A stretch of 29,881 bases of DNA from Syntrophus sp. (in: bacteria) (GTDB taxonomy: Bacteria; Desulfobacterota; Syntrophia; Syntrophales; UBA5619): NCBI GenBank assembly GCA_013824905.1, contig PNOO01000001.1:1-29881 (forward strand), written 5' to 3'. Under the pieces are notes generated by a model, which saw only the letters and a program-made list of their open reading frames with translations, made no database searches and was not told where the DNA came from. Shown here in pieces: positions 6,496 through 23,625 of this stretch (its first letter is position 1; every line of letters starts with the position of its first letter). The translations under genes were made by a program, and so were the position numbers.

Positions 6496-6508
6496 TGGCG
6501 GGAGAGGG
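6496..6508 (+). repeat. Distal att site (displaced tRNA 3'-end fragment)
   Basis: tggcgg-gagaggg (6496-6508) matches tggcggAgagaggg (23532-23545, tRNA 3' end on the minus strand) with a 1-nt deletion. It sits 5 bp after the host gene stop. Confidence 0.8.
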
Positions 6509-6571
6509 TCTATCAAATAGAGATACTATCTATTTGAATACACTTATAAAACAGAATAAGAAGTTTCATAG

Positions 6572-6646: not shown

Positions 6647-7786
6647 TTAACTCCCACTTTCAGACCTTCTTATGGCTTCTTTTTTGACATCCTTACCAGA
6701 AGAATAAAATTTCTTGTAAACCGCTTCGGCGATTTCATCGGCCTCCGTTGAAACTGACCTTTGAGTCATCGCCAGATTGCGGATGATTTCCCCCTGTCGC
6801 TGGCATGCAACCTCTCCATAGCTCAGAAAAGTCGTCAAAACTTTCTCATGTCCAAGGTTCTGGCTCCACGCCTTGAACTGTTCCGGCGTTTTGCAGACCT
6901 CTTCACCGAGTTGGGCAAGGGTATTTCTGAAGCTATGAGGATTGAAATACGGCAGCCCGGCGCTGATAAAGGCTTCGCGAAAGATAAATCGAATGGGCGA
7001 TGCGGTACTCCAGTGCTCCCGTGCCAGGCCTACCGCTGCAAATTGTCGATCAGGGCCTGGCACAACCCGCGTCGCCGGGAACAACGGATCGTCATTGCTC
7101 CACAGCTTCTCATCACGGAGATACAACGCCCACTCTGATATAATTGTACGAATTTCCTCGCCCACTGGAAAGAAGTATGTATTGAAGGTCTTGCTGAATT
7201 TCGTCTTTACCTCGCGGGCATCCTGGTTGACACATCCAGCTATAAGATCGACATGCTTCAGCTTCAGCGAGGCAATGGCGCTGTCCCTCGCTCCGGTTAA
7301 CAGCGTAAATGCCACTAAGGCGCGATTCCGGAGCTCTATCTCGGTTTTCGTTGGCATTGTATTGATGACGTGCTTGATCTGTTCCATTGTTGGGAACCTT
7401 TGCTGTCGTTTTGCAGTGGCAATGCGGGTATCTTTATCAGACAAATTGAAATACTCGGAATCGGCATATTGAACACGCGATTTGTAGCCAGGTTGCAACG
7501 CCAGCCACTGAAAGAACCGTTTGAGTTGGGTAAGGGTCGCATGCAGAGTCGCCTTACTCAGATTCTCCCCAGACTGCTGCCCCTTCTGCTCGGCAAGGTG
7601 CTTCTTGAAGGCGACGGCCTGCTCAAAGTGAAATGCCTTGAAATCTCGATAATTAGTGTATGACTCGAAGCGGCTCAGAGCTTTAGCGGTCGCGTCAACC
7701 GTTGGCTCGCTGTGACGCTTGGCTTCCTTTAGAAAAACGAAGTACTTTCGCTTGATCCGTTCATTGGCTGGATTGTGCTTTTTCAT
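6647..7786 (-). CDS. Tyrosine recombinase (second, non-P4 type), 379 aa
   Basis: Complete catalytic set: TGARDSA (R), HSFR, NLGH and TFLSYG (Y). ATG 7786 follows AGGGGA. Confidence 0.88.
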   Translation of the reverse strand: MKKHNPANERIKRKYFVFLKEAKRHSEPTVDATAKALSRFESYTNYRDFKAFHFEQAVAFKKHLAEQKGQQSGENLSKATLHATLTQLKRFFQWLALQPGYKSRVQYADSEYFNLSDKDTRIATAKRQQRFPTMEQIKHVINTMPTKTEIELRNRALVAFTLLTGARDSAIASLKLKHVDLIAGCVNQDAREVKTKFSKTFNTYFFPVGEEIRTIISEWALYLRDEKLWSNDDPLFPATRVVPGPDRQFAAVGLAREHWSTASPIRFIFREAFISAGLPYFNPHSFRNTLAQLGEEVCKTPEQFKAWSQNLGHEKVLTTFLSYGEVACQRQGEIIRNLAMTQRSVSTEADEIAEAVYKKFYSSGKDVKKEAIRRSESGS

Positions 7787-7802
7787 GGTCTTATATCCCC
7801 TA

Positions 7803-8270
7803 TCATAAGTCACTATTTACGGAAGGTCTGGCACTCTCAATTAGATGTTGAAGTGCTTCCGGGAAGCTGATGTCCATTTTCCCGCGAAACTCCTCGATCT
7901 GGGTCATGCTGACGTGCCGGTTCATCAAGGAATTGCAGTCCGGGCAAATGGCAATGAGGTTGCCGAACTTCTCAGTGATGGGTGAATATTCCGCCATGTC
8001 ACCGGCGGGCGATCTCGGGGCGCGGCAGCGCACGCAATAGAGTTCCCCCAGCTTGCAGGTCTGCTTGTTTTTTACACGGCGAGCCTGAAGAAATGCCACC
8101 AGAACATGACCAAGAATCAATAGAGGGCGTTTGTCGTCGATGGTAGCAAGCCCTTCCTTAACCCAGCGGCGCACTGTATTTTTGTGGATACCGAACAGCT
8201 TGGCAATCTCTTCAACCGTGTAGCTGCGGTGAATCTTTACTAGACGGTGGTTTGGGTGACGTCTTTTCAT
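7803..8270 (-). CDS. Excisionase/MerR-like HTH protein with C-terminal CxxC..CxxC zinc ribbon, 155 aa
   Basis: YTVEEIAKLFGIHKNTVRRWVKEGL is an HTH_17-like motif. YCVRC and ICPDC form two Cys pairs. Confidence 0.8.
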   Translation of the reverse strand: MKRRHPNHRLVKIHRSYTVEEIAKLFGIHKNTVRRWVKEGLATIDDKRPLLILGHVLVAFLQARRVKNKQTCKLGELYCVRCRAPRSPAGDMAEYSPITEKFGNLIAICPDCNSLMNRHVSMTQIEEFRGKMDISFPEALQHLIESARPSVNSDL

Positions 8271-9009: not shown

Positions 9010-9320
9010 TGGAGACTGCCGCTGATCCGCATGGTTTCCCTGCATTTCAGGCAAGTGAGCAGATCGATCTCATAGTTTTTTTGAATCAGATTGACCCAGC
9101 TTGTTCTGGCATGCCGCCGGTGACCTGTTTGATTCGATGATTTACGGGATTGAGCCGTCTTTGGCTCTCTTCTGCCTTTTCCCCCCGAGTGCCGTTGCTC
9201 TATCAACCGTAGTACCAAACCATCTGTTCTCCCCGGTTTGGGACATCCGAACACATGGACGCGAGCCATTCTTGGGCGTCGCAGCCCTTCCGGTCTTTAC
9301 CGTTTCGTCGACGGCATGTC
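9010..9320 (-). pseudogene. Decayed C-terminal fragment of an IS91-family (Y2/HUH) transposase
   Basis: DAQEWLASMCSDVPNRGEQMVWYYG**SN, then after a frameshift SWVNLIQKNYEIDLLTCLKCRETMRI. These match the recalled IS91-like C-terminal motifs (EWLA..HIP..GEQMVRYYG.YSN; WARLI.K.YEVDPL.CP.C...MRI). In-frame stops TGA TAG are present. Confidence 0.75.
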
Positions 9321-12300
9321 GTGTTTCGCTGCTGCCGGACCAGCAGCAGGCCTTGGCTTCGCAGCGTCGGGCGGCTTGGGATTGAGAGGTGGCAACGTTG
9401 TCCCTTCGTTTTGTAACTGTATGGCCTGTTTGGGTTTGTCCGCAATGAAGTTGGTGTAGAAGGTATAGAACCCGGTTAACCCGACAAGAATCCCGATTAT
9501 CCAATAGATGCTATTCAACCATGTAGTTTTTTCCTTTTGTTGTGTTGGTGTTGGTGGAAGCGTCATTTGTATCGACAGTTGTTGGTTTTGGTGAAACTTG
9601 CCTTCCCTTAAAAGCGTGGTGAGGATTTCTTGCACCTGATCCTTCGACATCATGTCGCGATTCATTTGATCATCCGGATAGTGATCGAGGTCACGCTCAT
9701 AGGCTCGGTGTTCCACAATGCCGCCGAGCAGATCCGCGATGGAGACGTTTCTGAATGGATATGGTGGCTTCTCACACCGAATATGAAACTCGTTTGCAGT
9801 GATATAATCTTGAAGTCGTGAAAGCTCGAACATGGTGGGGTTTGGAATTTCGCGACAAATGGGGCAGGTGCATGGCACGAGCGGTTCCACGTCCACCCTT
9901 GGGAAAGACTGTATGTGTACCGCGTCGATGGTGCCACGGATAAGGGCTAGAAAATCCTTGACCGGAAGCCGGTTTCCTCTGACCGAAATATCGATGAGTT
10001 TGAGACCCTCTTTGGAAAGATCCTTTTTAACCAATGCCTTGCATCCGTCCTTGCATAGAATGATGCCGCTCTTCCACACCAGGTCCTCTTTGTCGGGGTT
10101 TTTCGCAATCCAGTCATTCAAGCGAACGATGAGCCGGGTGATGATCCCTTCGGGCATGAACTTGTACCTGTACTGAAAGGACAAGGTGCCTTTTTTGTCC
10201 CAATTGTTGGCCTCCACCGGCGCCACGTCCGAAAGCAGTAGCGGCGCGATGAACGTGTCGGCTTTACCTTTTCCTCCTTCAACGCGGTAAACGAGGTCGA
10301 ACTCCTTTTTCTGCATCAGGTTGAGGAGCTTGTTCTTTTCCTCAAAGCTGTATTGATCGCTCCATTTGTCGAATAGCAGCGTTTTTTCAAACCGGCCATG
10401 GGTCTTCTCGATGTCCTTGTCCGACAGGATCATGTACACGGCCTTTGATATCCACTGAGGATTGACGAACAACGTGTCCGCCAGGGCTGTGTCGTTTCGA
10501 AAGTGAAGAATAATGCCGAGGGTGTTGAGAAAGTTGCATACCGCGAGTTGGTCCGCCTCTTCGGTGATTTCCTGCTTCTTGCAGATCTCCTTGAAATCGG
10601 CCATCGTGATATGGTTCTTCCTCTGTTGTTCGATGACGGCTTCCCGAACCCTGATCCAACTTGCCGGCAGTTCTTCTCCCACGTGTTTTAGACCTGTCAA
10701 CAGCTTTTTGATTTGAGAGGCGATGCCGGCAAAGCGATAGTCTTCCTTGAATAGATTGATATCCTCATACTCGAGGACTCTCAAATCGTTGCCGTACCGG
10801 TTTTTATACAGGTTCCAATCAAATCCTGTAGAAGATTCGATGTTCTTTCGATTGCGAACCACCAGCACAGGGCTGTCTTTGCCGAGAAGATGGATGATTC
10901 GGAACCAGTAGTCGATGTTGGGACAGTCTTTTCGATCATCCAGCATCAGGACGTAGAGGGCATCCTCCGTGAGAAAGAACTGGTGGATATAGTATTGAAT
11001 CTGCTGTCCTCCGAAGTCCCACAGGTGCGCTTTAAAGGACTTCTTTCCCTCGGCTGTGTATTCGAAATCAAACAGCCAATTCATGTATACGTTGATGCCC
11101 AAGGTAGAATCTTCTTCCCGCGATGGGTCGATTCTGTACGTATCATCCACCAGTCGCTTCATGAGCGATGTCTTGCCGGCCTTGGGTTCTCCCACAAAGA
11201 GCACCTTGGCTTCGTAGAGCTTATCCTTCTTTTTGGCCTTCTGTCGGTAGAAGCTGCGGATATCTTCAATATTGGCAAGTTGGACTACATAGCTTTTAGG
11301 TAAATCCGATACCGTTGTTTTTTCAAGAAGCAGATGGCGAAGATTCAATAAACTCAAAATGATTGCAAGACTTGTGAGTTTGTTTCCGCTGAGGTCGAGA
11401 GCGGTCAGCCCTTTAAGCTCTTTTAGGAACGAGAAGTCAGTGAGGTTGTTTCCGCTGAGGTCGAGAGCGGTCAGCCCTTTGAGCTCTTTTAGGAACGAGA
11501 CGTCCGTGAGTTTGTTTCCGCTGAGGTAGAGAGAGGTCAGCCCTTTGAGCTCTTTTAGGAACGAGACGTCCGTGAGGTTGTTTCCGCTGAGGTAGAGAAA
11601 GGTCAGCCCTTTGAGCTCTTTTAGGAACGAGACGTCCGTGAGTTTGTTAAAGTTGAGGCAGAGAGCGGTCAGCCCTTTGAGCTCTTTTAGGAACGAGACG
11701 TCAGTGAGGTTGTAAAAGCTGAGGTCGAGAAAGGTCAGCCCTTTGAGCTCTTTTAGGAACGAGACGTCAGTGAGGTTGTAAAAGCTGAGGTAGAGAGCGG
11801 TCAGCCCTTTGAGCTCTTTTAGGAACGAGACGTCCTTGAGGTTGTTAAAGCTGAGGTCGAGAGAGGTCAGCCCTTTGAGCTCTTTTAGGAACGAGACGTC
11901 CTTGAGGTTGTTAAAGCTGAGGTCGAGAGAGGTCAACCCTTTGAGCTCTTTTAGGAACGAGACGTCCGTGAGGTTGTTTCTGCTGAGGTCGAGAAAGGTC
12001 AGCCCTTTGAGCTCTTTTAGGAACGAGACGTCCTTGAGTTTGTTTCTACTGAGGTCGAGAGAGGTCAGCCCTTTGAGCTCTTTTAGGAACGAGAAGTCCG
12101 TGAGTTTGTTTCCGCTGAGGTAGCGAGAGGTCAACCCTTTGAGCTCTTTTAGGAACGAGAAGTCCGTGAGTTTGTTTCCGCTGAGGTCGAGAGAGGTCAG
12201 CCCTTTGAGCTCTTTTAGGAACGAGACGTCCGTGAGGTTATTTCCACTAAGGTCGAGAGAGGTCAGCCCTTTGAGCTCTTTTAGGAACGAGAAGTCCGTG

Positions 12301-12761
12301 AGTTTGTTTCCGCTGAGGTCGAGAGAGGTCAGCCCTTTGAGCTCTTTTAGGAACGAGACGTCCGTGAGGTTGTTAAAGCTGAGGTAGAGAGAGGTCAGTC
12401 CTTTGAGCTCTTTTAGGAACGAGAAGTCCGTGAGGTAGGGTGCCGAGATGCTGAGTATTTTAAGCTTGTGCAACCGGTTAAGAAAAACAAAATCACGAAT
12501 ATCGTTGAAGCGGATAATCAACGTTTCAATCTCTTGAAGGTCGCCGAGCAACCTGCCCTCGGAAAAGCAGGTATTGTTCAGCCAAAGGGTTACGATGTTT
12601 CCGCTTTCGCTAAAAAAATAGCCCCGTTTGGGTCGATCGGGGTACGTTTCCAATTCATCAAGATTGAGTTCAGGAAACGGTACACCTATCTGTACACCTA
12701 TCTGCTCGATGATGCGCATATCCGATATGTTGTCGGTTGAAGTGATTGAACTTGTTTCCAT
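9297..12761 (-). CDS. Bacterial Roco protein: LRR array, ROC GTPase, COR domain and C-terminal transmembrane helix, 1154 aa
   Basis: LRRs; P-loop GEPKAGKTS (11166-11192); G2 DSTLGI; G3 WDFGGQ; COR motifs LGIILHF, VNPQWI and MPEGIITRLIVRL; hydrophobic segment IYWIIGILVGLTGFYTFY. Confidence 0.92.
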   Translation of the reverse strand: METSSITSTDNISDMRIIEQIGVQIGVPFPELNLDELETYPDRPKRGYFFSESGNIVTLWLNNTCFSEGRLLGDLQEIETLIIRFNDIRDFVFLNRLHKLKILSISAPYLTDFSFLKELKGLTSLYLSFNNLTDVSFLKELKGLTSLDLSGNKLTDFSFLKELKGLTSLDLSGNNLTDVSFLKELKGLTSLDLSGNKLTDFSFLKELKGLTSRYLSGNKLTDFSFLKELKGLTSLDLSRNKLKDVSFLKELKGLTFLDLSRNNLTDVSFLKELKGLTSLDLSFNNLKDVSFLKELKGLTSLDLSFNNLKDVSFLKELKGLTALYLSFYNLTDVSFLKELKGLTFLDLSFYNLTDVSFLKELKGLTALCLNFNKLTDVSFLKELKGLTFLYLSGNNLTDVSFLKELKGLTSLYLSGNKLTDVSFLKELKGLTALDLSGNNLTDFSFLKELKGLTALDLSGNKLTSLAIILSLLNLRHLLLEKTTVSDLPKSYVVQLANIEDIRSFYRQKAKKKDKLYEAKVLFVGEPKAGKTSLMKRLVDDTYRIDPSREEDSTLGINVYMNWLFDFEYTAEGKKSFKAHLWDFGGQQIQYYIHQFFLTEDALYVLMLDDRKDCPNIDYWFRIIHLLGKDSPVLVVRNRKNIESSTGFDWNLYKNRYGNDLRVLEYEDINLFKEDYRFAGIASQIKKLLTGLKHVGEELPASWIRVREAVIEQQRKNHITMADFKEICKKQEITEEADQLAVCNFLNTLGIILHFRNDTALADTLFVNPQWISKAVYMILSDKDIEKTHGRFEKTLLFDKWSDQYSFEEKNKLLNLMQKKEFDLVYRVEGGKGKADTFIAPLLLSDVAPVEANNWDKKGTLSFQYRYKFMPEGIITRLIVRLNDWIAKNPDKEDLVWKSGIILCKDGCKALVKKDLSKEGLKLIDISVRGNRLPVKDFLALIRGTIDAVHIQSFPRVDVEPLVPCTCPICREIPNPTMFELSRLQDYITANEFHIRCEKPPYPFRNVSIADLLGGIVEHRAYERDLDHYPDDQMNRDMMSKDQVQEILTTLLREGKFHQNQQLSIQMTLPPTPTQQKEKTTWLNSIYWIIGILVGLTGFYTFYTNFIADKPKQAIQLQNEGTTLPPLNPKPPDAAKPRPAAGPAAAKHDMPSTKR
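11379..12434 (-). repeat. 16 contiguous 66-bp tandem repeats encoding 22-aa LRRs
   Basis: 16 x 66 = 1056 bp. Unit is L[TK]D[VF]SFLKELKGLT[SFA]L[DYC]L[SN][GFR][NY][NK], with no unique spacers. Confidence 0.97.
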
Positions 12762-12769
12762 AGGCCGTA

Positions 12770-12798
12770 AGTATGAGGACGGGGGGGTTGTATGTCAA
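12770..12798 (-). promoter_or_regulatory. Sigma70-like promoter for the Roco gene
   Basis: Minus strand TTGACA (12798-12793), 17-bp spacer, CATACT (12775-12770), 8 nt before ATG 12761. Confidence 0.65.
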
Positions 12799-12865: not shown

Positions 12866-13654
12866 TTATTGTTTCATTCGTTTACGGATGGTTTCTGCAT
12901 CGCGGCCTTGGGCAATGTTCAGCTTGGCAATCTGCTGAGAGCACCAAACGCCGGACATCCCAGGGCGTTTTCTTCGCAATGCACGATATTCCTTCCGCCA
13001 GCTCTCGTACATGGCTTTTGTATCCAGCTTGCGAGCTTCCATCCTGGCGTTGCTTGGCGTGTAGCGGTTATCTGCCGTGGTAGTGGAATCGGCCAGCCGT
13101 CGGATCTGCACAGCATCGAGCATATATGCGCCTTCGTGAAATTCAATGAACTCGGCCAACGGGACCTTGCTGTTCCCGGCGACCAGGGTCAACGCGCCCG
13201 AAGCTTCGAGGCATAGCATCTGGCTGCGTTTATCACCGAAAACAATGCCAATTTCCCATCGGCCGGCACTATCTGCTTGCCTGGCGGGGTGGCGCAGATC
13301 AAGGCAAGATGCGACAAAGCCGGATACCAAATCGGGACTGCACTGCCATTGTATTAACCTTTCGGGGGGAACCGGCACCCGATTTATATCGCTGCGCTTG
13401 TCACAAAGGATAAACGATGCCTGGGTGCCTGCTGTTGCGAGCAGGGTACGCAAGGGCATTACACAATTGCTCTCGCACCCTGGACATATAGCGCTTGATG
13501 CCGGACGCGCTTTTACGATCAGCTTTTGGGATTTCATGGCCTTAACTGCCGCCCTGGGCCATTGGCGCAAATCTTCATCATTAACCAGAACCGCAGTATC
13601 CTGGCAGGCACCCACACATCCCAAAAGCTCAAGCAATGCATCAATTGACGTCAT
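12866..13654 (-). CDS. Hypothetical protein, 262 aa, with Cys cluster and possible C-terminal HTH
   Basis: Long ORF whose ATG overlaps the upstream TGA (ATGA). Contains CPGCESNC..LCDK and a basic helical C-terminus (SQQIAKLNIAQGRDAETIRKRM). Confidence 0.8.
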   Translation of the reverse strand: MTSIDALLELLGCVGACQDTAVLVNDEDLRQWPRAAVKAMKSQKLIVKARPASSAICPGCESNCVMPLRTLLATAGTQASFILCDKRSDINRVPVPPERLIQWQCSPDLVSGFVASCLDLRHPARQADSAGRWEIGIVFGDKRSQMLCLEASGALTLVAGNSKVPLAEFIEFHEGAYMLDAVQIRRLADSTTTADNRYTPSNARMEARKLDTKAMYESWRKEYRALRRKRPGMSGVWCSQQIAKLNIAQGRDAETIRKRMKQ

Positions 13655-14871
13655 AATTTAACCGGTCTTTTCCCCTCGGGATTTTTCGCCGGTTCCTTGG
13701 GCTCGATCCCGGACGCTTCCAGCATGTCGCGCAGTTTTAGCCCCAGCTCGTCGTATTTGAGAGAGCAAGAATTGGGATATGTAATACGGATGGAAATCCG
13801 TTTCGCGGGTTTGTTGGAATCCACAACAACTGACGCCGATAGCTCAACCTGTGTGAGGTTGTACATATCCAAAGGGATTGCCTTTCCGATCTGGTCGAGC
13901 AAGACGTAGATGGCATCAGAGTTTCGCGAGGTATCGGCTTCCAGCGTAATGCGATCCCCTTTCTTAATCTGCGAGGAAAGCCGCAGTTTCTTAACCGTCA
14001 CTTCCTCGATGCCGCTGCCAACGTCGTAGGTGAAATCAAAACCTCTCTGGCGCAGCGGAGTCAGATCATAGATTCGTTCGTCTTTTGGATCAGGCGGCAG
14101 TTCATCGATCTTGAGAATCGCCGTTGCGAACATGCCCTGGAGAGGTTCAATGGCCTTATAAGACCCGCGAAAGTTCAGGTCGAGGGAACCCTCCTTTTGC
14201 GAGTAAACATAAATGACCTCGAAAGCGGGATTGTGAGGCCGACGGTCAAACTCGCCATTGACCCATTCGATGCTTTGCTGCGAATAATCTTCGGGATAGG
14301 CGAAAAAATAATCAAGTTCTCCCCGCCGGAAAGGTTCTACCACACAGTTTTTTCCCCGGCCCTCAGTATGGTGGAAATAATGGCGGATCAGCGCGGCCAG
14401 TTGCTGAAGGCTGGCCTCATCCACCGCTGCTGTTCGGTGCGGTAGATTTTTACGCTTGCGCCAATAGGGCATCGTATCCGCATGATAGAAGAGCGTGGCC
14501 CCCCTCCAGAAACAATTGTGATCCAAAAAGGTGGCCATTGCACGTTCATAGTGATTGGATAGGGCCGACAGCTTTTCAATAAAGGTCTTGAGAGCATCCG
14601 GGGTTTCCCGCATTTGCCAGTTTGCCTCGTCAATGATCGCCTGAAAGCCCTTTTCGCAGCTCATCTCGAAGATGTCCCGAAACTCTGAATCCATCTTATT
14701 ACGCTGGCTGTCCGGCAGAGCCAGCCAGGCCTCAAATAGCTCATCCGGCTTGCCCTCCTTCATAGCGGTGAAGTCCATATTGCCAAACAACCCACGCTCA
14801 TTAAAGTAGCGTCCAAGCAGAGCATTCGGCATCTGTCGGAGGAAGTTTTTTGTTGAGTATTGCCCGGCCAT
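13651..14871 (-). CDS. Hypothetical protein, 406 aa
   Basis: Long ORF. ATG 14871 follows AAAGGAG. No domain recognised. Confidence 0.85.
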   Translation of the reverse strand: MAGQYSTKNFLRQMPNALLGRYFNERGLFGNMDFTAMKEGKPDELFEAWLALPDSQRNKMDSEFRDIFEMSCEKGFQAIIDEANWQMRETPDALKTFIEKLSALSNHYERAMATFLDHNCFWRGATLFYHADTMPYWRKRKNLPHRTAAVDEASLQQLAALIRHYFHHTEGRGKNCVVEPFRRGELDYFFAYPEDYSQQSIEWVNGEFDRRPHNPAFEVIYVYSQKEGSLDLNFRGSYKAIEPLQGMFATAILKIDELPPDPKDERIYDLTPLRQRGFDFTYDVGSGIEEVTVKKLRLSSQIKKGDRITLEADTSRNSDAIYVLLDQIGKAIPLDMYNLTQVELSASVVVDSNKPAKRISIRITYPNSCSLKYDELGLKLRDMLEASGIEPKEPAKNPEGKRPVKL

Positions 14872-14907
14872 GTGATCTCCTTTCTTTGGCACTTTTTCCG
14901 CAAAACG

Positions 14908-15389: not shown

Positions 15390-16091
15390 TCAAGTCCTAT
15401 TCCAAGTCGTCCATCTACTCAGTATGGCCGCACCTGGACAGCGGCAGTTCTTGGTAATCGTAACCCAGTTAAATTCATCTATAAGTTTTGGGATAGATGA
15501 GTGTGGTCGGTCCAAGTATCTTGGAAGATCATAAAGTGATATGCCTTGCACTTTGCATTGTGATTCCAGCTGTGAAAGGGCTCTTTTCATATCCATATGG
15601 AAGCGATAGTAAGACTGTCCCGAAGCATCATATTTGAGTTTAGCTCTTATCGGCTCATCCCAAAGTACGAGGGCTTTGGGGCGTAAAGCAAAAAGGATTT
15701 TTGCTGCGCCAGTCGCTCCAATAGAAACTGGTATCCGCCCAGATCCCTTAGCTCTATGACTCGCTATTTTCCCCATCAGGTTTTCATAAGCCCTGCTGGT
15801 TAATTCAAGTTCTTCTGGCAACATCGAGTATAAGTCAGTATCCTTTACAGGCAAGATGTCTCTGTAGTCCTCATACCACTGTAAAATCTCCCCGCTTGCT
15901 TGGTCGTGACACTCCACGGAAAACTGTCTACATCCCCATTTGTTAAGCCAGGTGATGAGAGCCTGCCGATGGTCAGCAGATGTCAAGTCCAAGTCGTCAT
16001 TAATCCTCCCCTGGAAAGAACGATATGAGTTGTCGAAATCGCTCATACTGGCATAGATGTAACATGCAAAAGCAAGTTCGCCCAGGTTCAT
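15390..16091 (-). CDS. Helix-hairpin-helix (HhH-GPD/DUF6308-like) protein, putative DNA glycosylase-like, 233 aa
   Basis: IGATGAAKILFALRPKALVLWD resembles the G-x-T-x-A-(S)-K-x-L..P....(W/Y)D HhH motif, and there is a late KLIDEFNW motif. Strong RBS GAGGAGG. Confidence 0.55.
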   Translation of the reverse strand: MNLGELAFACYIYASMSDFDNSYRSFQGRINDDLDLTSADHRQALITWLNKWGCRQFSVECHDQASGEILQWYEDYRDILPVKDTDLYSMLPEELELTSRAYENLMGKIASHRAKGSGRIPVSIGATGAAKILFALRPKALVLWDEPIRAKLKYDASGQSYYRFHMDMKRALSQLESQCKVQGISLYDLPRYLDRPHSSIPKLIDEFNWVTITKNCRCPGAAILSRWTTWNRT

Positions 16092-16096
16092 AATCT

Positions 16097-17137
16097 CTAA
16101 TCCTCCTCCTGCGCCGCAACCGACCAGATACGCTTGAGGGGTAACTCGGCTTTTAAATCTTCGTCGAGTTTGTCATAGTGAGTGAAGAGTTGTTCCAGCA
16201 GTTCTTTCTGAGTCCAGAGCCGAACCTTAAAAAAACTTGCCGCCAATTCTTTTGGCACGTTGCTCTTGAACCCGCTCCATGAAACAAATAAACCTTCATT
16301 TGCACCGAACTTGCTCACCGCACCGAGCAGCTTGTCCACCATAGAACGGTCGATGGGCGATGTTTCCGATTTCACCTCGACGCAGAGCCTCGGCTCACTG
16401 AAGCCAAGCGGACCGGAACCAGCAAGAATATCAGCCCCGCCATCGGCGCCTTCCGGGCTTCGATAAGTTGTGTAGCCTTGGGCCGTGAGAATGGCCTCAA
16501 CCAATCGTGTCAACCCGTGCCCCTTGAATTTGGCCTCAATGACTCGGGCAATCTGGTCGCGTGACAGTTCTTCAAGATCTGGCGCAGCAACATGTTCGTC
16601 ATTATCAGTAGCGACAGCAGGCTTCACCTTAACAGCCGCAAGGTTTTCAGGTTTCCATCCGTTTGCCCGCATTGCAGAAATCCTGGATTCTGCATTGTTA
16701 CGCTGTATACGACATACAGTCATGAATGCGCCAAAGGAGTAGAGAAGGTCTTGGCTGAAATTTGAACGCGGGATGGTTTCACCAATCCATTTCACCGGTC
16801 GCCAGTGATAAAAGGGGCTCGGCCCTTTCTTTTCAAAGTGGTAATCCCCGGTGATTTCTCCGATGTAAATAGCGGGTTGTGATTTGAGCGGCAAGACGAC
16901 AAGATCACCTTGTTTCATATCGTGTGCGAACGGCCAGACCTGGCTTACCCAATTATAGAGGCGCTTCGGCTTTGCATCGGAATATATCTTCTCCATGAAT
17001 GTAAAAAGATCATTACGATTGCTCAGTTTCGACAGATCTTCCGTAAGGTTGTCTTTCGTTAAATAGACGTGCTTATCCTGGATGAACTTTTGTTCGTATT
17101 CGCCGTGCGAGCCGGCGCGGATTAACCAGATAGCCAT
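16097..17137 (-). CDS. Mrr-like (type IV) restriction endonuclease with N-terminal EVE/PUA-like domain, 346 aa
   Basis: C-terminal ADGGADI..CVEVKS..GLFVSWSGF (Mrr_cat). N-terminal IWLIRAG..MKQGDLVVLP..IGEITGDY..RPVKW. ATG 17137 follows GGAGG. Confidence 0.85.
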   Translation of the reverse strand: MAIWLIRAGSHGEYEQKFIQDKHVYLTKDNLTEDLSKLSNRNDLFTFMEKIYSDAKPKRLYNWVSQVWPFAHDMKQGDLVVLPLKSQPAIYIGEITGDYHFEKKGPSPFYHWRPVKWIGETIPRSNFSQDLLYSFGAFMTVCRIQRNNAESRISAMRANGWKPENLAAVKVKPAVATDNDEHVAAPDLEELSRDQIARVIEAKFKGHGLTRLVEAILTAQGYTTYRSPEGADGGADILAGSGPLGFSEPRLCVEVKSETSPIDRSMVDKLLGAVSKFGANEGLFVSWSGFKSNVPKELAASFFKVRLWTQKELLEQLFTHYDKLDEDLKAELPLKRIWSVAAQEED

Positions 17138-17150
17138 AGCAGCACCTCCA

Positions 17151-18308
17151 TTATTGCTCAGTTTCACCCGGATTAAAGAATACATTTAGTCGGTCTTCAT
17201 ACACGGATAGAGCAGACGCGACAACACTATCTTCATCACATCCGAAAACAAATTCACCGTCATCTCTTGGAGCATTGGCATAAAAGGCTGTCGCTGCAAT
17301 TTCAGAAAGATATTGTTCCAAATCTTCACGGTTCGAAACGGTTGTTTGGTGTTTTTCACCATCGAAATCAAACAGAGTAATGGTCTTGTCTCTATCATCC
17401 CAAAGAGCATTTTCAAGTGCATCTTCCACTGCCAAGCGTGCCGCTGTATCCCATGGCATTTCGCTGTCGTCATTCCATGATAGTTCCCAATTAGACAAGA
17501 ACTGATTGAGCATGTTATTAACTTGTTGCAGTGCATTCAGATAGTTTTCTGTTATCCGCTGCGACGGACGACGGTTGTGGGCGACACAATTCCTCATGGC
17601 TTCAATGGAGGTCATTCGCTCGCGCAAGCCGGCGAGAAACACGGCATCATCCTCGTCTTCGATCGGCTGCCTTTCCAATTCACGCCGGAGCGTTTCGTAA
17701 GTCTCGTTTGACTGAATTAGGCTTAAGAGGGTTGGTAACTGGCGCATGTCGGGGCGTCGGTTCAATTTCACATATTGCCCTAACGTAAGGAAGAAAAATT
17801 CATTCTCACCAGTAGCCCGCATCTGCTGTTCTTGTGGTGAGTTTATGGGCTTCTCTGACTCTTCGCGAAGGAGGTCATAGGGCCTCTCGATATAACCGTA
17901 GAGATATATAACGGAAATGACACGGCGCAGCTTCATTTCAAGCGCAAAGAGTTCTTCCGAACGTTGTGCAAGTTCGCGACGAAGCAATGGGTCTTCAAAC
18001 TTCACAGCGTGTTCAATCGGCGTGTCCAGAAGAGCATCAGCGAATTCATCAACGACAGTACGAAAGCTTGCAGTTTCGTCAGGTAGTTCGATCGAGAAGC
18101 CGAGGATGGTTCGCCAATGGGTTACACCAGCTTCATCGTTTACTGGATCGCCGATACGCTCGAAGTTTAATGTGAGCATCTGTAAGATCACATCATCGTC
18201 AAACTGGTTAAGGTTGTCCGTCAGCACAATGCGCAGACGGTCAAGCAGAATATCGGAGATGCTCATGCCTTCTTCTCTTTGATAGACGATGACATACTCA
18301 AATTTCAT
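17151..18308 (-). CDS. HEPN-domain protein (Swt1-like), putative RNase, 385 aa
   Basis: RNCVAH (R-x4-H, 17577-17594) preceded by LEMKLRRVI and FLTLGQY, a Swt1-type HEPN pattern. Acidic C-terminal domain. Confidence 0.75.
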   Translation of the reverse strand: MKFEYVIVYQREEGMSISDILLDRLRIVLTDNLNQFDDDVILQMLTLNFERIGDPVNDEAGVTHWRTILGFSIELPDETASFRTVVDEFADALLDTPIEHAVKFEDPLLRRELAQRSEELFALEMKLRRVISVIYLYGYIERPYDLLREESEKPINSPQEQQMRATGENEFFFLTLGQYVKLNRRPDMRQLPTLLSLIQSNETYETLRRELERQPIEDEDDAVFLAGLRERMTSIEAMRNCVAHNRRPSQRITENYLNALQQVNNMLNQFLSNWELSWNDDSEMPWDTAARLAVEDALENALWDDRDKTITLFDFDGEKHQTTVSNREDLEQYLSEIAATAFYANAPRDDGEFVFGCDEDSVVASALSVYEDRLNVFFNPGETEQ

Positions 18309-18310
18309 GG

Positions 18311-19726
18311 CTAGATGCCTCCCAAGAGTTGTTCTTCAAACCAACGCTTGGCTTTTTGCCAATCGGTTTCGGCTTCGACTCGCAGGCGGCGTGCTTCATC
18401 AAGGCGGCGGTGAGATTCGTACACAATAGCCTCCTGCACTGGCTTTGGAGGTATAATAAGTGGAATTTCACCAATCTCTTCTAAATTGATGTTTGCACGA
18501 GCAACCGGACGTTTAAAGAAGTCAAGCAATGCTTGGCCAACGCTGGAGCGTAGATAAAGGCAAGCATATTCCGTAGAAACTTCATTGCCTGCCAATCTGA
18601 CTGCTGCTATTGCTTGATTTATGTTCGCGGGCTCGTCGCGGTTAAATACACCGGCAGCCCCTATCGTTGCGCCGACAATTGCGATGAGTAAATCACCAGA
18701 TTCAAGCTGCGAGTGCTTCATCAAGCCATTGTGAATAGAGGCGCTTATATGGACCTCACTATTTGGTGTCACTGCCCCGTCCGCGGTGATTTCGCCGCTA
18801 CGAATAAAGCGTACACCATCGGGTGGAAGGACGTAGGAATCACCTTTAGCCAGTGGAGTAACCCCGGAAAAAATGCGTGACGCGAGCTCTTTAAAGGATG
18901 CTACGCGATAACTGGATCGGTGGATATAGGCGAACAAGTTCCTAAATCGCAACTGGTTTGAATAAGCATCGATTCGTTTGCCAAGATCGCTAACTCGCAC
19001 AGCAAAAAATTTGCAATTATCCTTTGGCGGCTGTGTTAGGCCGAGGGTATCAAGGAGGAAACCGTCGAGACCGGTAAGCAACGACTCAGCCTCCGCCAGT
19101 TTCGCTCGCCGAGTCATTCGCGCAGCATCCATAACAGCGACAATATTCGATTGCACTTTTAAGATATCTGGAAGTGGAATTTCGAAACTCTTAAACTCCT
19201 CCTTGTTGATGTTTGGTTGTCCGGCCGGCCTCTGAATTTTGGTAACCCACCGCGCGTAGAAGTCTGTTTTTGTACACCAGTAGACAAAACGAGGAAGGAC
19301 AACATCGTGTTTGAAGCGAAAGCGAATGCAGTAGCCTGCAAAGATTGCAGACTCACTTGTGTCTTCATGGATATATGTTTTCCCTACCGTTGCGCCACTT
19401 CTGGCAAATAGTAGATCATCAGCATGAAGGATGCATTCCGGTTCAATAGGATCAGCCGTTACATAATCGTGACCAGGCTCAATGCCATCATCGCCGAAAT
19501 CTGTTATCCGAATGTAGCGTGGCTGAGTTTTTTTTGTACGTTGGACTGCACGAGCACCGGACCCGTAGTTCGGCTCTTCGCTAACCAACGAAGCCAGACT
19601 CCGCAGGGGGTGAAGTACCTCAGAGAGAGATTCGCGAAGCGCGAAGTATTTCGCATCGCATCGGCCCCTTATCTCGCCCCGCTGAACCGCAAAGCACTGA
19701 GCTTTGCCCGCTTCAACAGGGCTCAG
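18311..19726 (-). CDS. Restriction-modification specificity (S) subunit with two TRDs, ~471 aa
   Basis: Two HsdS-like repeats (DLLFARSGATVGK / DLLIAIVGATIG; GQPNINKEE / ARANINLEE). The frame is open 46 codons upstream of the ORF-track start, back to a CTG overlapping the methylase stop. Confidence 0.85.
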   Translation of the reverse strand: MSPVEAGKAQCFAVQRGEIRGRCDAKYFALRESLSEVLHPLRSLASLVSEEPNYGSGARAVQRTKKTQPRYIRITDFGDDGIEPGHDYVTADPIEPECILHADDLLFARSGATVGKTYIHEDTSESAIFAGYCIRFRFKHDVVLPRFVYWCTKTDFYARWVTKIQRPAGQPNINKEEFKSFEIPLPDILKVQSNIVAVMDAARMTRRAKLAEAESLLTGLDGFLLDTLGLTQPPKDNCKFFAVRVSDLGKRIDAYSNQLRFRNLFAYIHRSSYRVASFKELASRIFSGVTPLAKGDSYVLPPDGVRFIRSGEITADGAVTPNSEVHISASIHNGLMKHSQLESGDLLIAIVGATIGAAGVFNRDEPANINQAIAAVRLAGNEVSTEYACLYLRSSVGQALLDFFKRPVARANINLEEIGEIPLIIPPKPVQEAIVYESHRRLDEARRLRVEAETDWQKAKRWFEEQLLGGI

Positions 19727-21768
19727 ACGAAAAAACTTGTCGGGTCCTTTTTAAAGGCCCGGTACTGTGCCACCAATCCTGTGTCGGGAATGATTTCGCG
19801 ATGCCGCTCACTCCAGTCTGGTTTCTTTGGGTTTGTTGTGCTCCACTCGTAGGTGACCCGGTAGTCGAAGAGGTCGCTGCGTTGAAGTTCGACTTTTTCC
19901 TTCCCAGGCTCTTCTTTTTCAACAGTGACGAAAAATGTTTTCCTCCCGGTAGCATCGTAGCCGATGTTATCGGCCAAGGCCATAAAGATGGGGGTATCGT
20001 CCGATACCTGTTCACTCTCTCTGAGGCGGCGAAGGAAAACGAGGGTGGCCTTTACACCTGCGTCGTAGTGGGCAAAGGCAAATTGTGGCAGGGAGACGAC
20101 GGCAAGGAGTTGAAAATGCTCCAGCAACCAGTTGCGCACACCTTGTAGCGAGGAATTGGTGAGAATACCATCGGGCAGGACGATGGCGGTGCGGCCTGTA
20201 CCTGGCTTGAGGAAGGAATGGACACGTTCAAGGAAGAGAATTTCTGTCTTGATGCTGGACCGGTCTTTCACAGCCTTAGCACCACGCTTGGCGTCACTCT
20301 CTCCCTTGGCAGATTCGTCCGGCTCGCTGCCCGTGGTGCTCTTGCCGAGATATTTCCGCAGTTCGAACTGTTCAAGATAACCCTCACTCTTTTCGGTGCG
20401 TTTCACCACGGAACCAAAAGGCGGATTGGTGAGGATAAGATCGAACTTGTCGCGCTTGAGTGTCTCTTTCTTGCTCTCAATGCGGTCGAGAAAGTCGAGG
20501 GCGTCATGGCCGACGATATTGGTATGGCCGTCATCATGGATTATCATGTTCATTTTGGCAACACGGGCCAGTTCTTCGTTGATCTCTATGCCGAAGAGGT
20601 TCTTTTCGGCGAAATCATGCCAGTAAATGAAGTGGTCTGTGTGTTGTTTCGTGTCAGTGCAGCGCTCGGGGAATCGGCGATCAGCCTCGCGCCGAACGTG
20701 GTCAAGGGCGTACAAAAGGAAGCCACCGGAGCCACAGGCGGGGTCAAGCACGAAGTCCTTTCTTTTCGGGTCAAGCACTTCTACAGCGAATGCGATGAGT
20801 TCGCGTGGGGTAAAGTATTGACCGAAGTCGCCCTTAAAGAAGCTACCCATGAACTCCTCGAAGGCTACGCCCTTGGTATCGAGTTCGGTGCGGTCGAGGG
20901 AGATGCCTTCCAAGTGTTCGACACATTGCGCGAGAATGGCCGGTCCTATGTTGATCTTGTCGGTGAAGACGTCCGGCTCCAGTTCCTGCTCGGCGGCGTA
21001 GAGCTTATAGATGCGGGCAGCGAGTTCGCCGGCACTTTCCTCGCTGCGGCGCTGAAACGCATAGGGCTTGCCATTCTCGCGGTTGGGGTCCTTTTCGTCG
21101 CGGTGTTTTATGAAGATGATTTTGCAGAACTCGCCGAAAGCTGCTATTGGACTGCGGCGACCACCTTCCCAAAGGGTCTGGTGGCACTTGCGGATAGCGG
21201 AGCGCAGTTCTTCGCGGGGGACGGCGGCAAGGTCCTTGCCATTGAGGTTCTTGTAGAAGCGCCAATCAGGGGGCTTGCCGTAGCGGACGGGAATGTCGGG
21301 AAGAACATTACGGTCGCGTTCGCCAGCCGGGAATTTATCAAAACGCAGAAGGCGGCGTGTCAGTCCCGCGATCACACCGCAATACTTGGCTCCAAGGCTC
21401 GCTCGGTTGCCACAGGCTTGCTCAATAGCCTGAGAAAATTCAGCATCGGATATATCGGCACGCTTGCATTCGAAAACAAAGTAGCGGTCCTTCCTTTCGT
21501 CGTTGGCGTAGATTACGAGATCGGCCTTGTCGTCCGGGGTACGGCGTTCGACTCTGACCTCAAGGCCTATACACTCTGGTTGATACTCGTATTTGTAAAT
21601 AAGTTCGGACCAAAACTCGGCACGGACTTTCTCTTCCGGATCGGCCCAACGCTCGGAATGGTTGGCAGCTTTGTAATGGATGCACTCTATCTTGCCTTCG
21701 CCTCTAATTTCGGCGAGGCCGTCTTCGAATGCTCGTTCAAGGTAAGTCTTATAGCTGTCGGTTGTCAT
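19723..21768 (-). CDS. Restriction nuclease-N6 adenine methyltransferase fusion, 681 aa
   Basis: N-terminal HsdR_N-like PD-(D/E)xK motif (EEKVR..KADLVIY..FECK). MTase motifs GQYFTPR, DPACGSGGF and TNPPFG. No helicase motifs. Confidence 0.92.
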   Translation of the reverse strand: MTTDSYKTYLERAFEDGLAEIRGEGKIECIHYKAANHSERWADPEEKVRAEFWSELIYKYEYQPECIGLEVRVERRTPDDKADLVIYANDERKDRYFVFECKRADISDAEFSQAIEQACGNRASLGAKYCGVIAGLTRRLLRFDKFPAGERDRNVLPDIPVRYGKPPDWRFYKNLNGKDLAAVPREELRSAIRKCHQTLWEGGRRSPIAAFGEFCKIIFIKHRDEKDPNRENGKPYAFQRRSEESAGELAARIYKLYAAEQELEPDVFTDKINIGPAILAQCVEHLEGISLDRTELDTKGVAFEEFMGSFFKGDFGQYFTPRELIAFAVEVLDPKRKDFVLDPACGSGGFLLYALDHVRREADRRFPERCTDTKQHTDHFIYWHDFAEKNLFGIEINEELARVAKMNMIIHDDGHTNIVGHDALDFLDRIESKKETLKRDKFDLILTNPPFGSVVKRTEKSEGYLEQFELRKYLGKSTTGSEPDESAKGESDAKRGAKAVKDRSSIKTEILFLERVHSFLKPGTGRTAIVLPDGILTNSSLQGVRNWLLEHFQLLAVVSLPQFAFAHYDAGVKATLVFLRRLRESEQVSDDTPIFMALADNIGYDATGRKTFFVTVEKEEPGKEKVELQRSDLFDYRVTYEWSTTNPKKPDWSERHREIIPDTGLVAQYRAFKKDPTSFFV

Positions 21769-22132: not shown

Positions 22133-23350
22133 CTACCTCTTTGCTGTCTTGAACGGTACCACCACAGCGCCAGCCTTTAATCCATCAAGATAATCCGACC
22201 ACGTCTGCATCATCTTCCGGCGTTCTTCAAGGTGGGCCGTCCGGTTGTAGGCCCGTCCATTCGGATCACGTACGGCATGGGCGAGCTGATGCTCGATGTA
22301 ATCAGGACGGATGTGCAGGACCTCATCAAGGATAGTTCGCGCCATTGCCCGGAATCCGTGGCCGGTCATGGTTTCCTTGGCGTACCCCATATATCTGAGC
22401 GCTGCGTTAATCGTATTTTCGCTTATCGGCTTGGTAACTGACCGCACGGACGGAAAAACATAGCGACCTGAACCGGTTAACGGTTGCAGCTCACGGAGAA
22501 TTTCAACGGCCTGATCCGGCAGGGGCACAAGGTGAGGTTCTTTCATCTTCATCTTGCTGGCCGGGATATTCCAGACAGATTCGTCAAGATCAATTTCCGC
22601 CCATTCTGCATGCCTCAGTTCCCCAGGACGGACAAAAAGAATCGGTGCCAGTCTCAAAGCACACTTCACAACAAAATGCCCTTGATAGCCGTCTATAGCC
22701 CTAAGAAGGGGGGCAACCTCTTTCGGGTCCGTTATCGCTGCATGATGCTTTTCGCCTGGTTGTGGCAAGGCCCCTTTAAGATCGACTGATGGGTCACGTT
22801 CGGCCCTACCCGTAGCGACAGCATACCGGAACACCTGACCGGCAATAGTCCTAATCCTGTGTGCCGATTCCAAAGCACCCCGATCCTCAACCCGACGTAA
22901 GACGGCCAGAAGTTCAGGCGCCTTGATCTCTGTAATCGGGCGTTTTCCAATCCAGGGGAAAAGATCCCGCTCCAGGCGGCCCTTGATAGCGGAAGCGTGG
23001 CCAGGTGTCCATGTCGGCGTGAATTTCGTATGCCATTCACGGGCTATGACTTCAAAGGTTTCCGTTTCCTCTGTCTGCACCTGCTTTTGTGCTTTTCGGA
23101 CGGCTCCGGGGTCAATGCCATGCGCTAACTGCGTTCGGGCTTCATCCTGCCGGCGCCTGGCGTCGAACAGAGAAATTTCAGGATAACTCCCCAAGGCAAG
23201 GAGTTTTTCTTTCCCATCGAAGCGATACTTCATCCGCCATAGCTTGCCGCCTTTTGTAGTAACGAGAAGGAAGAGACCACCGCCGTCAAATAGCTTTAGA
23301 GGCTTTTCTATGGGCTTGCAGTTCCGAATCTTCACATCACTTAGAGACAT
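22133..23350 (-). CDS. P4-like tyrosine integrase with N-terminal arm-binding domain, 405 aa
   Basis: DGGGLFLLV..GKLWRMKYRFDGKEKLLALGSYP arm domain. Catalytic RPGE, HGFR, LAH and AYNR intact. RBS GGAGG. Confidence 0.96.
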   Translation of the reverse strand: MSLSDVKIRNCKPIEKPLKLFDGGGLFLLVTTKGGKLWRMKYRFDGKEKLLALGSYPEISLFDARRRQDEARTQLAHGIDPGAVRKAQKQVQTEETETFEVIAREWHTKFTPTWTPGHASAIKGRLERDLFPWIGKRPITEIKAPELLAVLRRVEDRGALESAHRIRTIAGQVFRYAVATGRAERDPSVDLKGALPQPGEKHHAAITDPKEVAPLLRAIDGYQGHFVVKCALRLAPILFVRPGELRHAEWAEIDLDESVWNIPASKMKMKEPHLVPLPDQAVEILRELQPLTGSGRYVFPSVRSVTKPISENTINAALRYMGYAKETMTGHGFRAMARTILDEVLHIRPDYIEHQLAHAVRDPNGRAYNRTAHLEERRKMMQTWSDYLDGLKAGAVVVPFKTAKR

Positions 23351-23531: not shown

Positions 23532-23625
23532 TGGCGGAGAGAGGGGGATTCGAACCCCCGTGAGGGCGGTTAGCCCCCAAATCGATTTCGAGTCGATCCC
23601 GTTACGACCACTTCGGTATCTCTCC
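23532..23625 (-). tRNA. tRNA-Ser(CGA), intact, CCA encoded
   Basis: Acceptor GGAGAGA/TCTCTCC-G-CCA; anticodon arm ATCGA-CTCGAAA-TCGAT; long variable arm; T-arm GGGGG-TTCGAAT-CCCCC. Confidence 0.97.

Follow-up and report, generated by a model that had tools for sequence, protein, structure and literature searches.

Bacterial Roco proteins are structural models for human LRRK2, and in the literature consulted on Roco we found neither a biological role nor a ligand for them. Here we describe a Roco gene, identified by its open reading frame (ORF) and Pfam matches (1154 amino acids; 9297..12761, minus strand), that carries an in-frame tandem array of 66-bp leucine-rich repeat (LRR) units. The gene lies on one whole 29.9-kb contig of a Syntrophus sp. 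metagenome-assembled genome (MAG) consisting of 517 contigs, with an assembly of 2.7 Mb that is 82% complete; this contig of 29,881 nucleotides (PNOO01000001.1) is referred to as the window. A first-pass annotation of the window had described the array as an invariant LRR scaffold with a small, shuffled alphabet of residues at binding-face positions, and had likened it to the diversification of nucleotide-binding oligomerization domain-like receptors (NLRs) and variable lymphocyte receptors (VLRs).

Several described systems are relevant for comparison. In a computational study, Kaur, Iyer, Burroughs and Aravind (2021; eLife 10:e70394, PMC8195603) predicted AP-GTPase (Roc)-COR proteins to act against invaders, and described this class as having N-terminal LRRs that evolve rapidly and no fewer than 24 C-terminal effector domains. 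A Roc-COR-CHAT protein acts as the protease that activates the gasdermin of Runella. The Roco protein of Chlorobium tepidum (CtRoco; PDB 5il7, 6hlu, 8r4b) undergoes a GTP-driven conformational change about the hinge between LRR and Roc domains (PMC11052575). In brown algae, LRR-ROCO proteins are candidate immune receptors. Diversifying selection acts on their individual LRR units, which also undergo shuffling, and Teng et al. (2024) proposed that ligand-binding diversity arises in this way (PMC11378527). WD40, ANK and TPR repeats of high internal conservation, as found in fungal and bacterial NLR-like proteins, combine concerted evolution with positive selection on the binding face (PMC4986451; 10.1101/2020.01.06.895854). 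This kind accounts for 16% of fungal NLR repeats (PMC4986451), and the literature on it also comprises Paoletti 2007 and Chevanne 2010, as cited by Dyrka 2014 (PMC4986451). According to Dyrka 2014 (PMC4986451) and the Dyrka 2020 preprint (10.1101/2020.01.06.895854), fungal NLRs lack LRRs, which are also untypical for the NLRs of prokaryotes.

The Syntrophus protein resembles the class of Kaur 2021 in its N-terminal LRRs followed by Roc and COR. Proteins of this class continue into a variable C-terminal module, and the TIR_2, EAD8 and EAD11 modules of relatives of the Syntrophus protein match those named in that paper (PMC8195603). The Syntrophus protein itself departs from the class as presented there, its C-terminal part being a single transmembrane (TM) helix in which no effector domain was recognised. 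The pattern reported here at the DNA level, near-identical units that vary at the face, is not documented in the portion of Kaur 2021 to which we refer (PMC8195603).

Results

The 66-bp array is confirmed as real and encodes the LRR arm of an island-borne Roco protein. Tandem Repeats Finder placed it at 11374..12436 on the minus strand, with a period of 66, 16.1 copies and 92% matches, and it corresponds to a direct-repeat family (D1) with 66-nt spacing. Fifteen full units of 22 amino acids (amino acids 119-448; 11418..12407, minus strand) have a mean identity of 90.9% in DNA and 83.6% in protein and comprise 13 distinct protein units; third codon positions of the scaffold are 97% identical among units. 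By these three values the array belongs to the high-internal-conservation kind of repeat. A 16th unit (11352..11417, minus strand) is family-like in its first 15 codons, and its 3' part diverges into a C-terminal LRR cap. A degenerate unit preceding the array (12408..12473, minus strand; 65% nucleotide identity to a core unit) supplies the first SFLKE among the 16 occurrences of the motif SFLKELKGLT, which follow one another at exact 22-residue spacing in ORF 9297-12761 (minus strand). The first-pass annotation had reported that 16 repeats keep this motif, had listed the codon alphabets given below, and had noted a single core Leu-to-Arg change in repeat 5; all three statements agree with our analysis.

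With unit position 1 set at the L of LKG, residues vary at nine positions: S/F/A at position 6 (TCT/TTT/GCT), D/Y/C at position 8 (GAC/TAC/TGC), G/F/R at position 11 (GGA/TTT/AGA), N/K at position 13, T/K at position 15 and V/F at position 17, in addition to S/N at position 10 in one unit, L/R at position 7 in one unit and N/Y at position 12 in two units. Positions 6, 8, 10, 11 and 13 correspond to x3, x5, x7, x8 and x10 of the LxxLxLxxN highly conserved segment, which are the classical ligand-facing positions of LRRs. All five of these predicted concave codons vary in their residue, compared to 4 of the 17 others (Fisher p=0.0048). The claim that variation concentrates at exposed positions is borne out in this respect, with the exception of N/Y, which had been counted among the exposed sites and in fact affects the conserved Asn of LxxLxLxxN at position 12, a core residue of the structural Asn ladder. 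The two N-to-Y codons are in adjacent units (11778-11780 and 11712-11714; span 11712..11780, minus strand), both of these units carry the same synonymous ACT marker, and the change is seen nowhere else in the array. It is best read as a single event copied by unit duplication and not as a member of the binding alphabet. The core Leu-to-Arg codon is CGC at 12123..12125 (minus strand) in unit 5, corresponding to amino acid 213.

Mapping of the variable sites onto a structure model, proposed in the first-pass annotation as a check, supports their predicted placement. In a single-sequence AlphaFold (AF2) model, in which residues 130-450 have a predicted local distance difference test (pLDDT) score >85, the beta-strand of the unit is built from positions 6-8 and its helix from positions 18-22, so that two of the concave codons (6 and 8) are predicted to lie within the strand. 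Exposure of the variable positions was deduced, rather than calculated as solvent accessibility, from the strand register given by DSSP and the established geometry of LRRs. The best structural matches of the LRR model in Foldseek were headed by the LRR domain of CtRoco and included internalin A.

We next compared replacement and silent diversity among the units, with all figures derived from a single allele and a small number of sites. There are 20 variable nucleotide columns, 13 with replacement and 7 with synonymous changes. The earlier impression of few synonymous changes does not hold as a count, given these 7 of 20 columns; it holds for frequency, since all seven synonymous variants are rare, and replacement variants are at intermediate frequency (Mann-Whitney p=0.016). 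Codon positions 1 and 2 of the concave codons had a per-site diversity of 0.263 and the third positions of the scaffold one of 0.044 (Mann-Whitney p=0.004), so replacement diversity on the concave side is about six times the silent diversity of the scaffold. According to the Nei-Gojobori method, the replacement diversity (piN) of the concave codons was 0.267, compared to a silent diversity (piS) of 0.071 in the other 17 codons. At codon 11, the GGA and TTT alleles share none of their three bases, against a background divergence of 9%. As in high-internal-conservation repeats, replacement variation is thus concentrated on the predicted face and exceeds silent variation, here in one allele and at few sites. 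Because relaxed constraint alone cannot lift replacement above silent diversity, we favour selection as the explanation, either diversifying or balancing among the units or opposing homogenisation at the face sites.

The array contains both mosaic and local block duplication. In the four-gamete test, 35 of the 66 informative site pairs failed, equivalent to at least 5 events of recombination or recurrent mutation within 40 nt. Adjacent units differ by 4.9 nt on average and units at lag 5 by 7.3 nt (permutation p=0.014). Unit 1 is identical to unit 3, a single base separates unit 7 from unit 8, and units of the F, G and R types at codon 11 are grouped in runs. The mosaic allele combinations noted earlier are supported by the four-gamete failures, but unit order is non-random and reflects local block duplication in addition. 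The longest exact internal repeat is 105 nt, at an offset of 132. While 89 of the 55-mers are non-unique, every k-mer of the array is unique at k>=127, and reads of 150 nt are therefore long enough to resolve the path through the array. Identical blocks may still have been collapsed, or the path may be a strain chimera. We found no second allele in a scan of JGI metagenome contigs with an exact scaffold 30-mer and with close-relative proteins, and neither a second copy of the repeat nor a cassette library in a DNA search of the 2.7-Mb, 82%-complete assembly, which also contains no Roco paralogue. A shufflon or invertible segment was rejected, as no meaningful inverted repeats flank the array.

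We scanned one genome per species, obtaining 73 related loci, and scored their arrays with a simple detector. Five loci contain 22-residue arrays of high internal identity, with within-array nucleotide identities of 0.90 in Bacteroidales (L028), 0.85 in Spirochaetes (L069, in a TIR-ended protein), 0.82 in Ignavibacteria (L012), and 0.77 in both Anammoxibacter (L010) and Thermoflexibacter (L070). Scaffold third-position identity was 0.82-0.97 within arrays and 0.09-0.51 between arrays. For the Syntrophus array, it was 0.97 among its own units and 0.09-0.36 in comparison with the five others, which is the homogenisation of silent sites expected from intragenic recombination or gene conversion, as the first-pass annotation had suggested. 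Given high third-position identity within arrays and low identity between them, each lineage has homogenised its own array. In all five arrays piN peaks at positions 8, 10, 11 and 13 and is also raised at positions 6, 15 and 17. D/Y at position 8 recurs in L028, L069, L012 and L010, representing four other phyla, and this recurrence suggests convergence on a small set of aromatic versus charged residues at a putative contact position.

High internal conservation was observed in about 1/5 of the relatives with scorable arrays, the others having ordinary divergent LRRs; in relatives with low identity, every non-core position varies. Among the closest relatives, the number of units ranges from about 4 to about 19. 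Together with lineage-wise homogenisation, this range agrees with the description of rapidly evolving N-terminal LRRs fused to AP-GTPase and COR. In place of the TM tail, relatives have TIR_2, EAD8, EAD11 or an MCU-like TM module at their C-termini. The closest relative, P0002, is a protein of 760 amino acids encoded on a 42.5-kb contig; its called start is inside the LRR array and only about 4 units are present. The P0002 array may be genuinely short, or collapsed or truncated in the assembly.

The order of domains in the Syntrophus protein is N-cap, LRR array, Roc, COR-A, COR-B, linker, C-terminal TM helix and a Pro/Lys-rich tail. Pfam matches were obtained for LRR_4 (1e-68), Roc (PF08477, 2.5e-23; amino acids 519-639, 10845..11207, minus strand), COR-A (PF16095, 2e-35; amino acids 699-843) and COR-B (PF25497, 3.9e-28; amino acids 859-1013), the two COR parts together spanning 9723..10667 (minus strand). 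Roc is directly followed by COR-A and COR-B, as is characteristic of the Roco class. The best match among solved proteins is CtRoco 6hlu, with E=3e-113 across LRR-Roc-COR. A linker of ~70 residues separates COR-B from the most hydrophobic 19-residue window of the protein, which we interpret from hydrophobicity as a single C-terminal TM helix (amino acids ~1085-1106; 9444..9509, minus strand); equivalent hydrophobic tails are seen in the relatives P0002, P0007, P0009, P0014 and P0018. Based on the Pfam order, the match to CtRoco and the hydrophobic window, we classify the predicted protein as a bacterial Roco (LRR-Roc-COR), an LRRK2-like GTPase, with a C-terminal membrane helix. The Roc domain has a P-loop (GEPKAGKT) and a switch II motif (DFGGQ). 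The G4 motif, near amino acids 655-660, aligns as N-R-K-N compared to NKID/NKID(E) in solved Rocos (canonical NKxD), and its N and K(+2) are invariant in an alignment of 16 proteins of the clade. The whole clade may have an altered nucleotide specificity or a shifted G4. On the plus strand, the ORFs 11809-12123 and 12139-12387 are antisense to the array and encode repetitive peptides; we rejected them as genes and regard them as a by-product of the in-frame repeat.

The Roco gene is situated in a low guanine-plus-cytosine (GC) stretch at ~6.5-23.5 kb (GC 0.48-0.53 versus about 0.6 outside), which also holds an operon of restriction-modification (RM) and Mrr genes. Flanking housekeeping proteins share clusters at a level of at least 90% with proteins labelled Syntrophales bacterium. 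On one side, the stretch is anchored by tRNA-Ser(cga) (23532-23625, minus strand) and an adjoining tyrosine integrase gene (22133-23350, minus strand). The 3' end of tRNA-Ser (23532-23546) is imperfectly repeated in direct orientation at 6496-6509, and this short attachment site-like remnant is likely to mark the far end of a tRNA-Ser island. Just within this far end, at 6647-8270, there is a second tyrosine recombinase together with an HTH_17 gene. According to Pfam and PADLOC, the tight gene row at 15390-21768 (minus strand) encodes an N6 methylase with an HSDR_N-like N terminus (type I-like), a type I specificity subunit and a Mrr_cat/PDC-S02 nuclease (E=6e-155); genes for proteins of 385 and 233 amino acids in this row gave no family matches.

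Two overlapping genes directly upstream of the Roco gene (12866-14892, minus strand) encode proteins of 413 and 262 amino acids, neither with a Pfam or PADLOC match. No counterparts were found beside any Roco relative examined; the 262-amino acid protein forms a singleton cluster, and the 413-amino acid sequence is absent from the protein collection searched. Since these two genes are unannotatable and never accompany relatives, we rejected them as operon partners and treat the Roco gene as stand-alone. Just upstream of its start codon, at 12770..12798 (minus strand), the sequence TTGACA-17-CATACT matches the sigma-70 consensus. Sigma-70-like sites are not more numerous in the region than expected by chance, and we consider this consensus match a putative promoter.

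Each of the island proteins that we looked up is alone in its cluster, and so is the Roco protein at 90% clustering. A search of 40 related genomes, 14 of the same genus among them, yielded no relative of the Roco gene. The Roco gene is a rare accessory gene, for which acquisition on the tRNA-Ser integrative island is the best explanation. Phage origin of the gene was rejected because no relative of the Roco protein was found in viral contigs of IMG/VR.

Discussion

It is fairly probable in our view that the array forms the LRR solenoid by which a tail-anchored Roco protein in the cytoplasm senses a ligand, and that concerted evolution together with diversifying selection on the sensor surface has shaped it. 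Repeated unequal crossing-over or gene conversion between in-frame 66-bp units would homogenise the scaffold, silent sites included, accompanied by local block duplication. Amino acid differences are retained or build up at predicted solvent-facing positions of the beta-strand and the following loop. Each unit would offer a small set of residues, aromatic versus small or charged, and such sets combined along about 16 units could tune the concave surface to a ligand that changes fast and is most likely an invader component. Binding of this ligand may shift the GTP-driven LRR-Roc hinge, as known from CtRoco, and trigger the C-terminal module, which would be the membrane helix here, possibly acting by helix clustering, and TIR, EAD8 or EAD11 in relatives. 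Diversification would be germline and occur over evolutionary time, as in the high-internal-conservation repeats of fungal NLRs, instead of by somatic cassette assembly.

The only residues that change fast line the predicted concave face, and they point to ligand recognition under conflict-type selection. We infer an immune function for the Roco protein; the RM and Mrr genes in the same island provide a supportive context for a counter-invader role. Several observations weigh against this proposal or parts of it. Within the concave codons themselves, piN/piS was only 1.19 and based on few sites (scaffold ratio 0.44). The four-gamete failures could result from recurrent mutation instead of recombination, and both order and number of units rest on one allele in a short-read MAG contig. 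No Pfam domain and no recognised effector domain follow COR-B, and the TM helix could be a mere anchor. The dependence of the protein on GTP is assumed, its G4 motif being non-canonical. PADLOC does not recognise the Roco protein, and we are aware of no report in the literature that experimentally links any LRR-Roc-COR protein of the clade to phage defence. In a crude survey of 122 neighbouring ORFs at 19 related loci, most were of housekeeping type and few matched RM genes.

A Roco sensor without immune function, acting as a membrane-associated GTPase in signalling, with an LRR surface for one or several cellular partners and with repeats that drift and expand like those of other bacterial Rocos, is unlikely in our estimation. 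It would agree with the survey just mentioned, in which two-component, transporter and metabolic genes dominate the neighbourhoods of the 19 relatives, so that association with defence islands is not a trait of the family. The lack of a PADLOC match and of a recognised effector domain in this protein would fit equally, and the literature consulted on CtRoco, its closest solved relative, does not address a biological role. However, the Roco gene is rare, accessory and located beside RM/Mrr genes on an integrative island, and the C-terminal TIR or EAD modules of its relatives are of a kind typically found in conflict systems (PMC8195603). A conserved partner, moreover, predicts a conserved face and not one that is more variable than silent sites. 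Under a neutral origin, the array would have been amplified recently by slippage or unequal crossing-over, with the scaffold under purifying selection and the exposed positions unconstrained and of no special role in recognition. Adjacent units are indeed more alike, some pairs and blocks look freshly duplicated (units 1/3 and 7/8; the 105-nt repeat), the piN/piS of 1.19 within the concave codons is modest, and low-identity relatives vary at all non-core positions. We nevertheless regard neutral amplification as unlikely, given the six-fold excess of concave replacement over silent scaffold diversity (p=0.004), the intermediate frequency of replacement variants compared to rare synonymous variants (p=0.016), codon 11 alleles that differ at three bases, and the same variable positions in five independent lineages, with D/Y in four of them.

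That the mosaic is partly artificial, arising from a chimeric or collapsed path through near-identical repeats, seems very improbable to us. The array is contained in a single contig of a 517-contig MAG of 82% completeness, 89 of its 55-mers are non-unique, and the collections searched for comparison yielded no second copy. Against this, the longest exact repeat of 105 nt and the uniqueness of k-mers at k>=127 make the array bridgeable by 150-nt reads, the reading frame is intact over 1154 codons, and the equivalent arrays of five other lineages, which share the positional profile, come from independent assemblies. The alphabet at each position and the location of the variable positions are, in addition, independent of unit order. 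Quite unlikely, in our view, is an extension of the proposal in which frequent in-frame recombination of units makes the gene a contingency locus, yielding many receptor variants of unit order and number within one population. If true, the population would possess a ready-made set of Roco sensors in anticipation of changing invaders, and bacteria would have in their germline an equivalent of the combinatorial diversification of LRR receptors.

VLRs and the targets of diversity-generating retroelements (DGRs) share with the array a combinatorial variation concentrated on a binding surface, in VLRs on an LRR and in DGR targets on other folds. Assembly from cassettes as in VLRs was rejected because no donor cassettes were found in the DNA search of the 82%-complete assembly, and on this point we depart from the first-pass annotation. 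A DGR target was rejected because the assembly contains no template repeat (second copy) and the changes are not adenine-specific, the variable columns including T/G, C/T, G/A and C/A changes; in addition, there was no reverse transcriptase among the contig ORFs scanned. Both systems are excluded since their defining parts are absent. The array is of the same 22-residue LRR type and fold as internalin InlA. An internalin-type secreted or surface LRR protein was rejected, because the N terminus is hydrophilic (by direct reading, no predictor) and a cytoplasmic GTPase forms part of the same polypeptide as the LRR. Similarity to CtRoco is closer, comprising the best sequence match and the top Foldseek match of the LRR domain, although the Syntrophus protein differs in its G4 motif (NRKN, not NKxD) and in its C-terminal TM tail.

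As in the high-internal-conservation repeats of NLRs, the units are 80-90% identical and evolve in concert through reshuffling of units, with an excess of replacement at a few face positions. The frequency of such arrays is also similar, about 1/6 of fungal NLR arrays compared to about 1/5 of scorable Roco relatives. The NLR analogy of the first-pass annotation is strengthened insofar as the array would form the N-terminal sensor of an LRR-Roc-COR protein, the relatives of which carry TIR or EAD modules. Unlike in the NLRs, the repeat in Syntrophus is an LRR, and the switch is a Roc GTPase with COR, not the NACHT or NB-ARC core of signal transduction ATPases with numerous domains (STAND). Exchange between paralogues is unavailable in Syntrophus because the Roco gene is single-copy. 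The brown-algal ROCOs have the same LRR-Roc-COR architecture (PMC11378527). Each of their LRRs is a separate exon, subject to exon shuffling and alternative splicing, whereas the Syntrophus units are contiguous in one ORF. Particular to the Syntrophus Roco protein are its TM tail, its location on an island and a face that contrasts with the scaffold to an unusual degree.

In conclusion, the array is a clean further example of a pattern known from immune-type receptors and not a new mechanism. Considered jointly with relatives that end in TIR or EAD modules, it lends support to the prediction of LRR-Roc-COR proteins as bacterial immune receptors that resemble NLRs and are switched by a GTPase. 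The Roco protein with its TM tail provides a simple single-gene candidate for this receptor prediction, and the variable positions identify the residues to swap or mutate. In our best reading, its closest analogues are the high-internal-conservation repeats of fungal NLRs and the brown-algal LRR-ROCOs, and not VLR assembly, as the 82%-complete assembly contains no donor cassettes.

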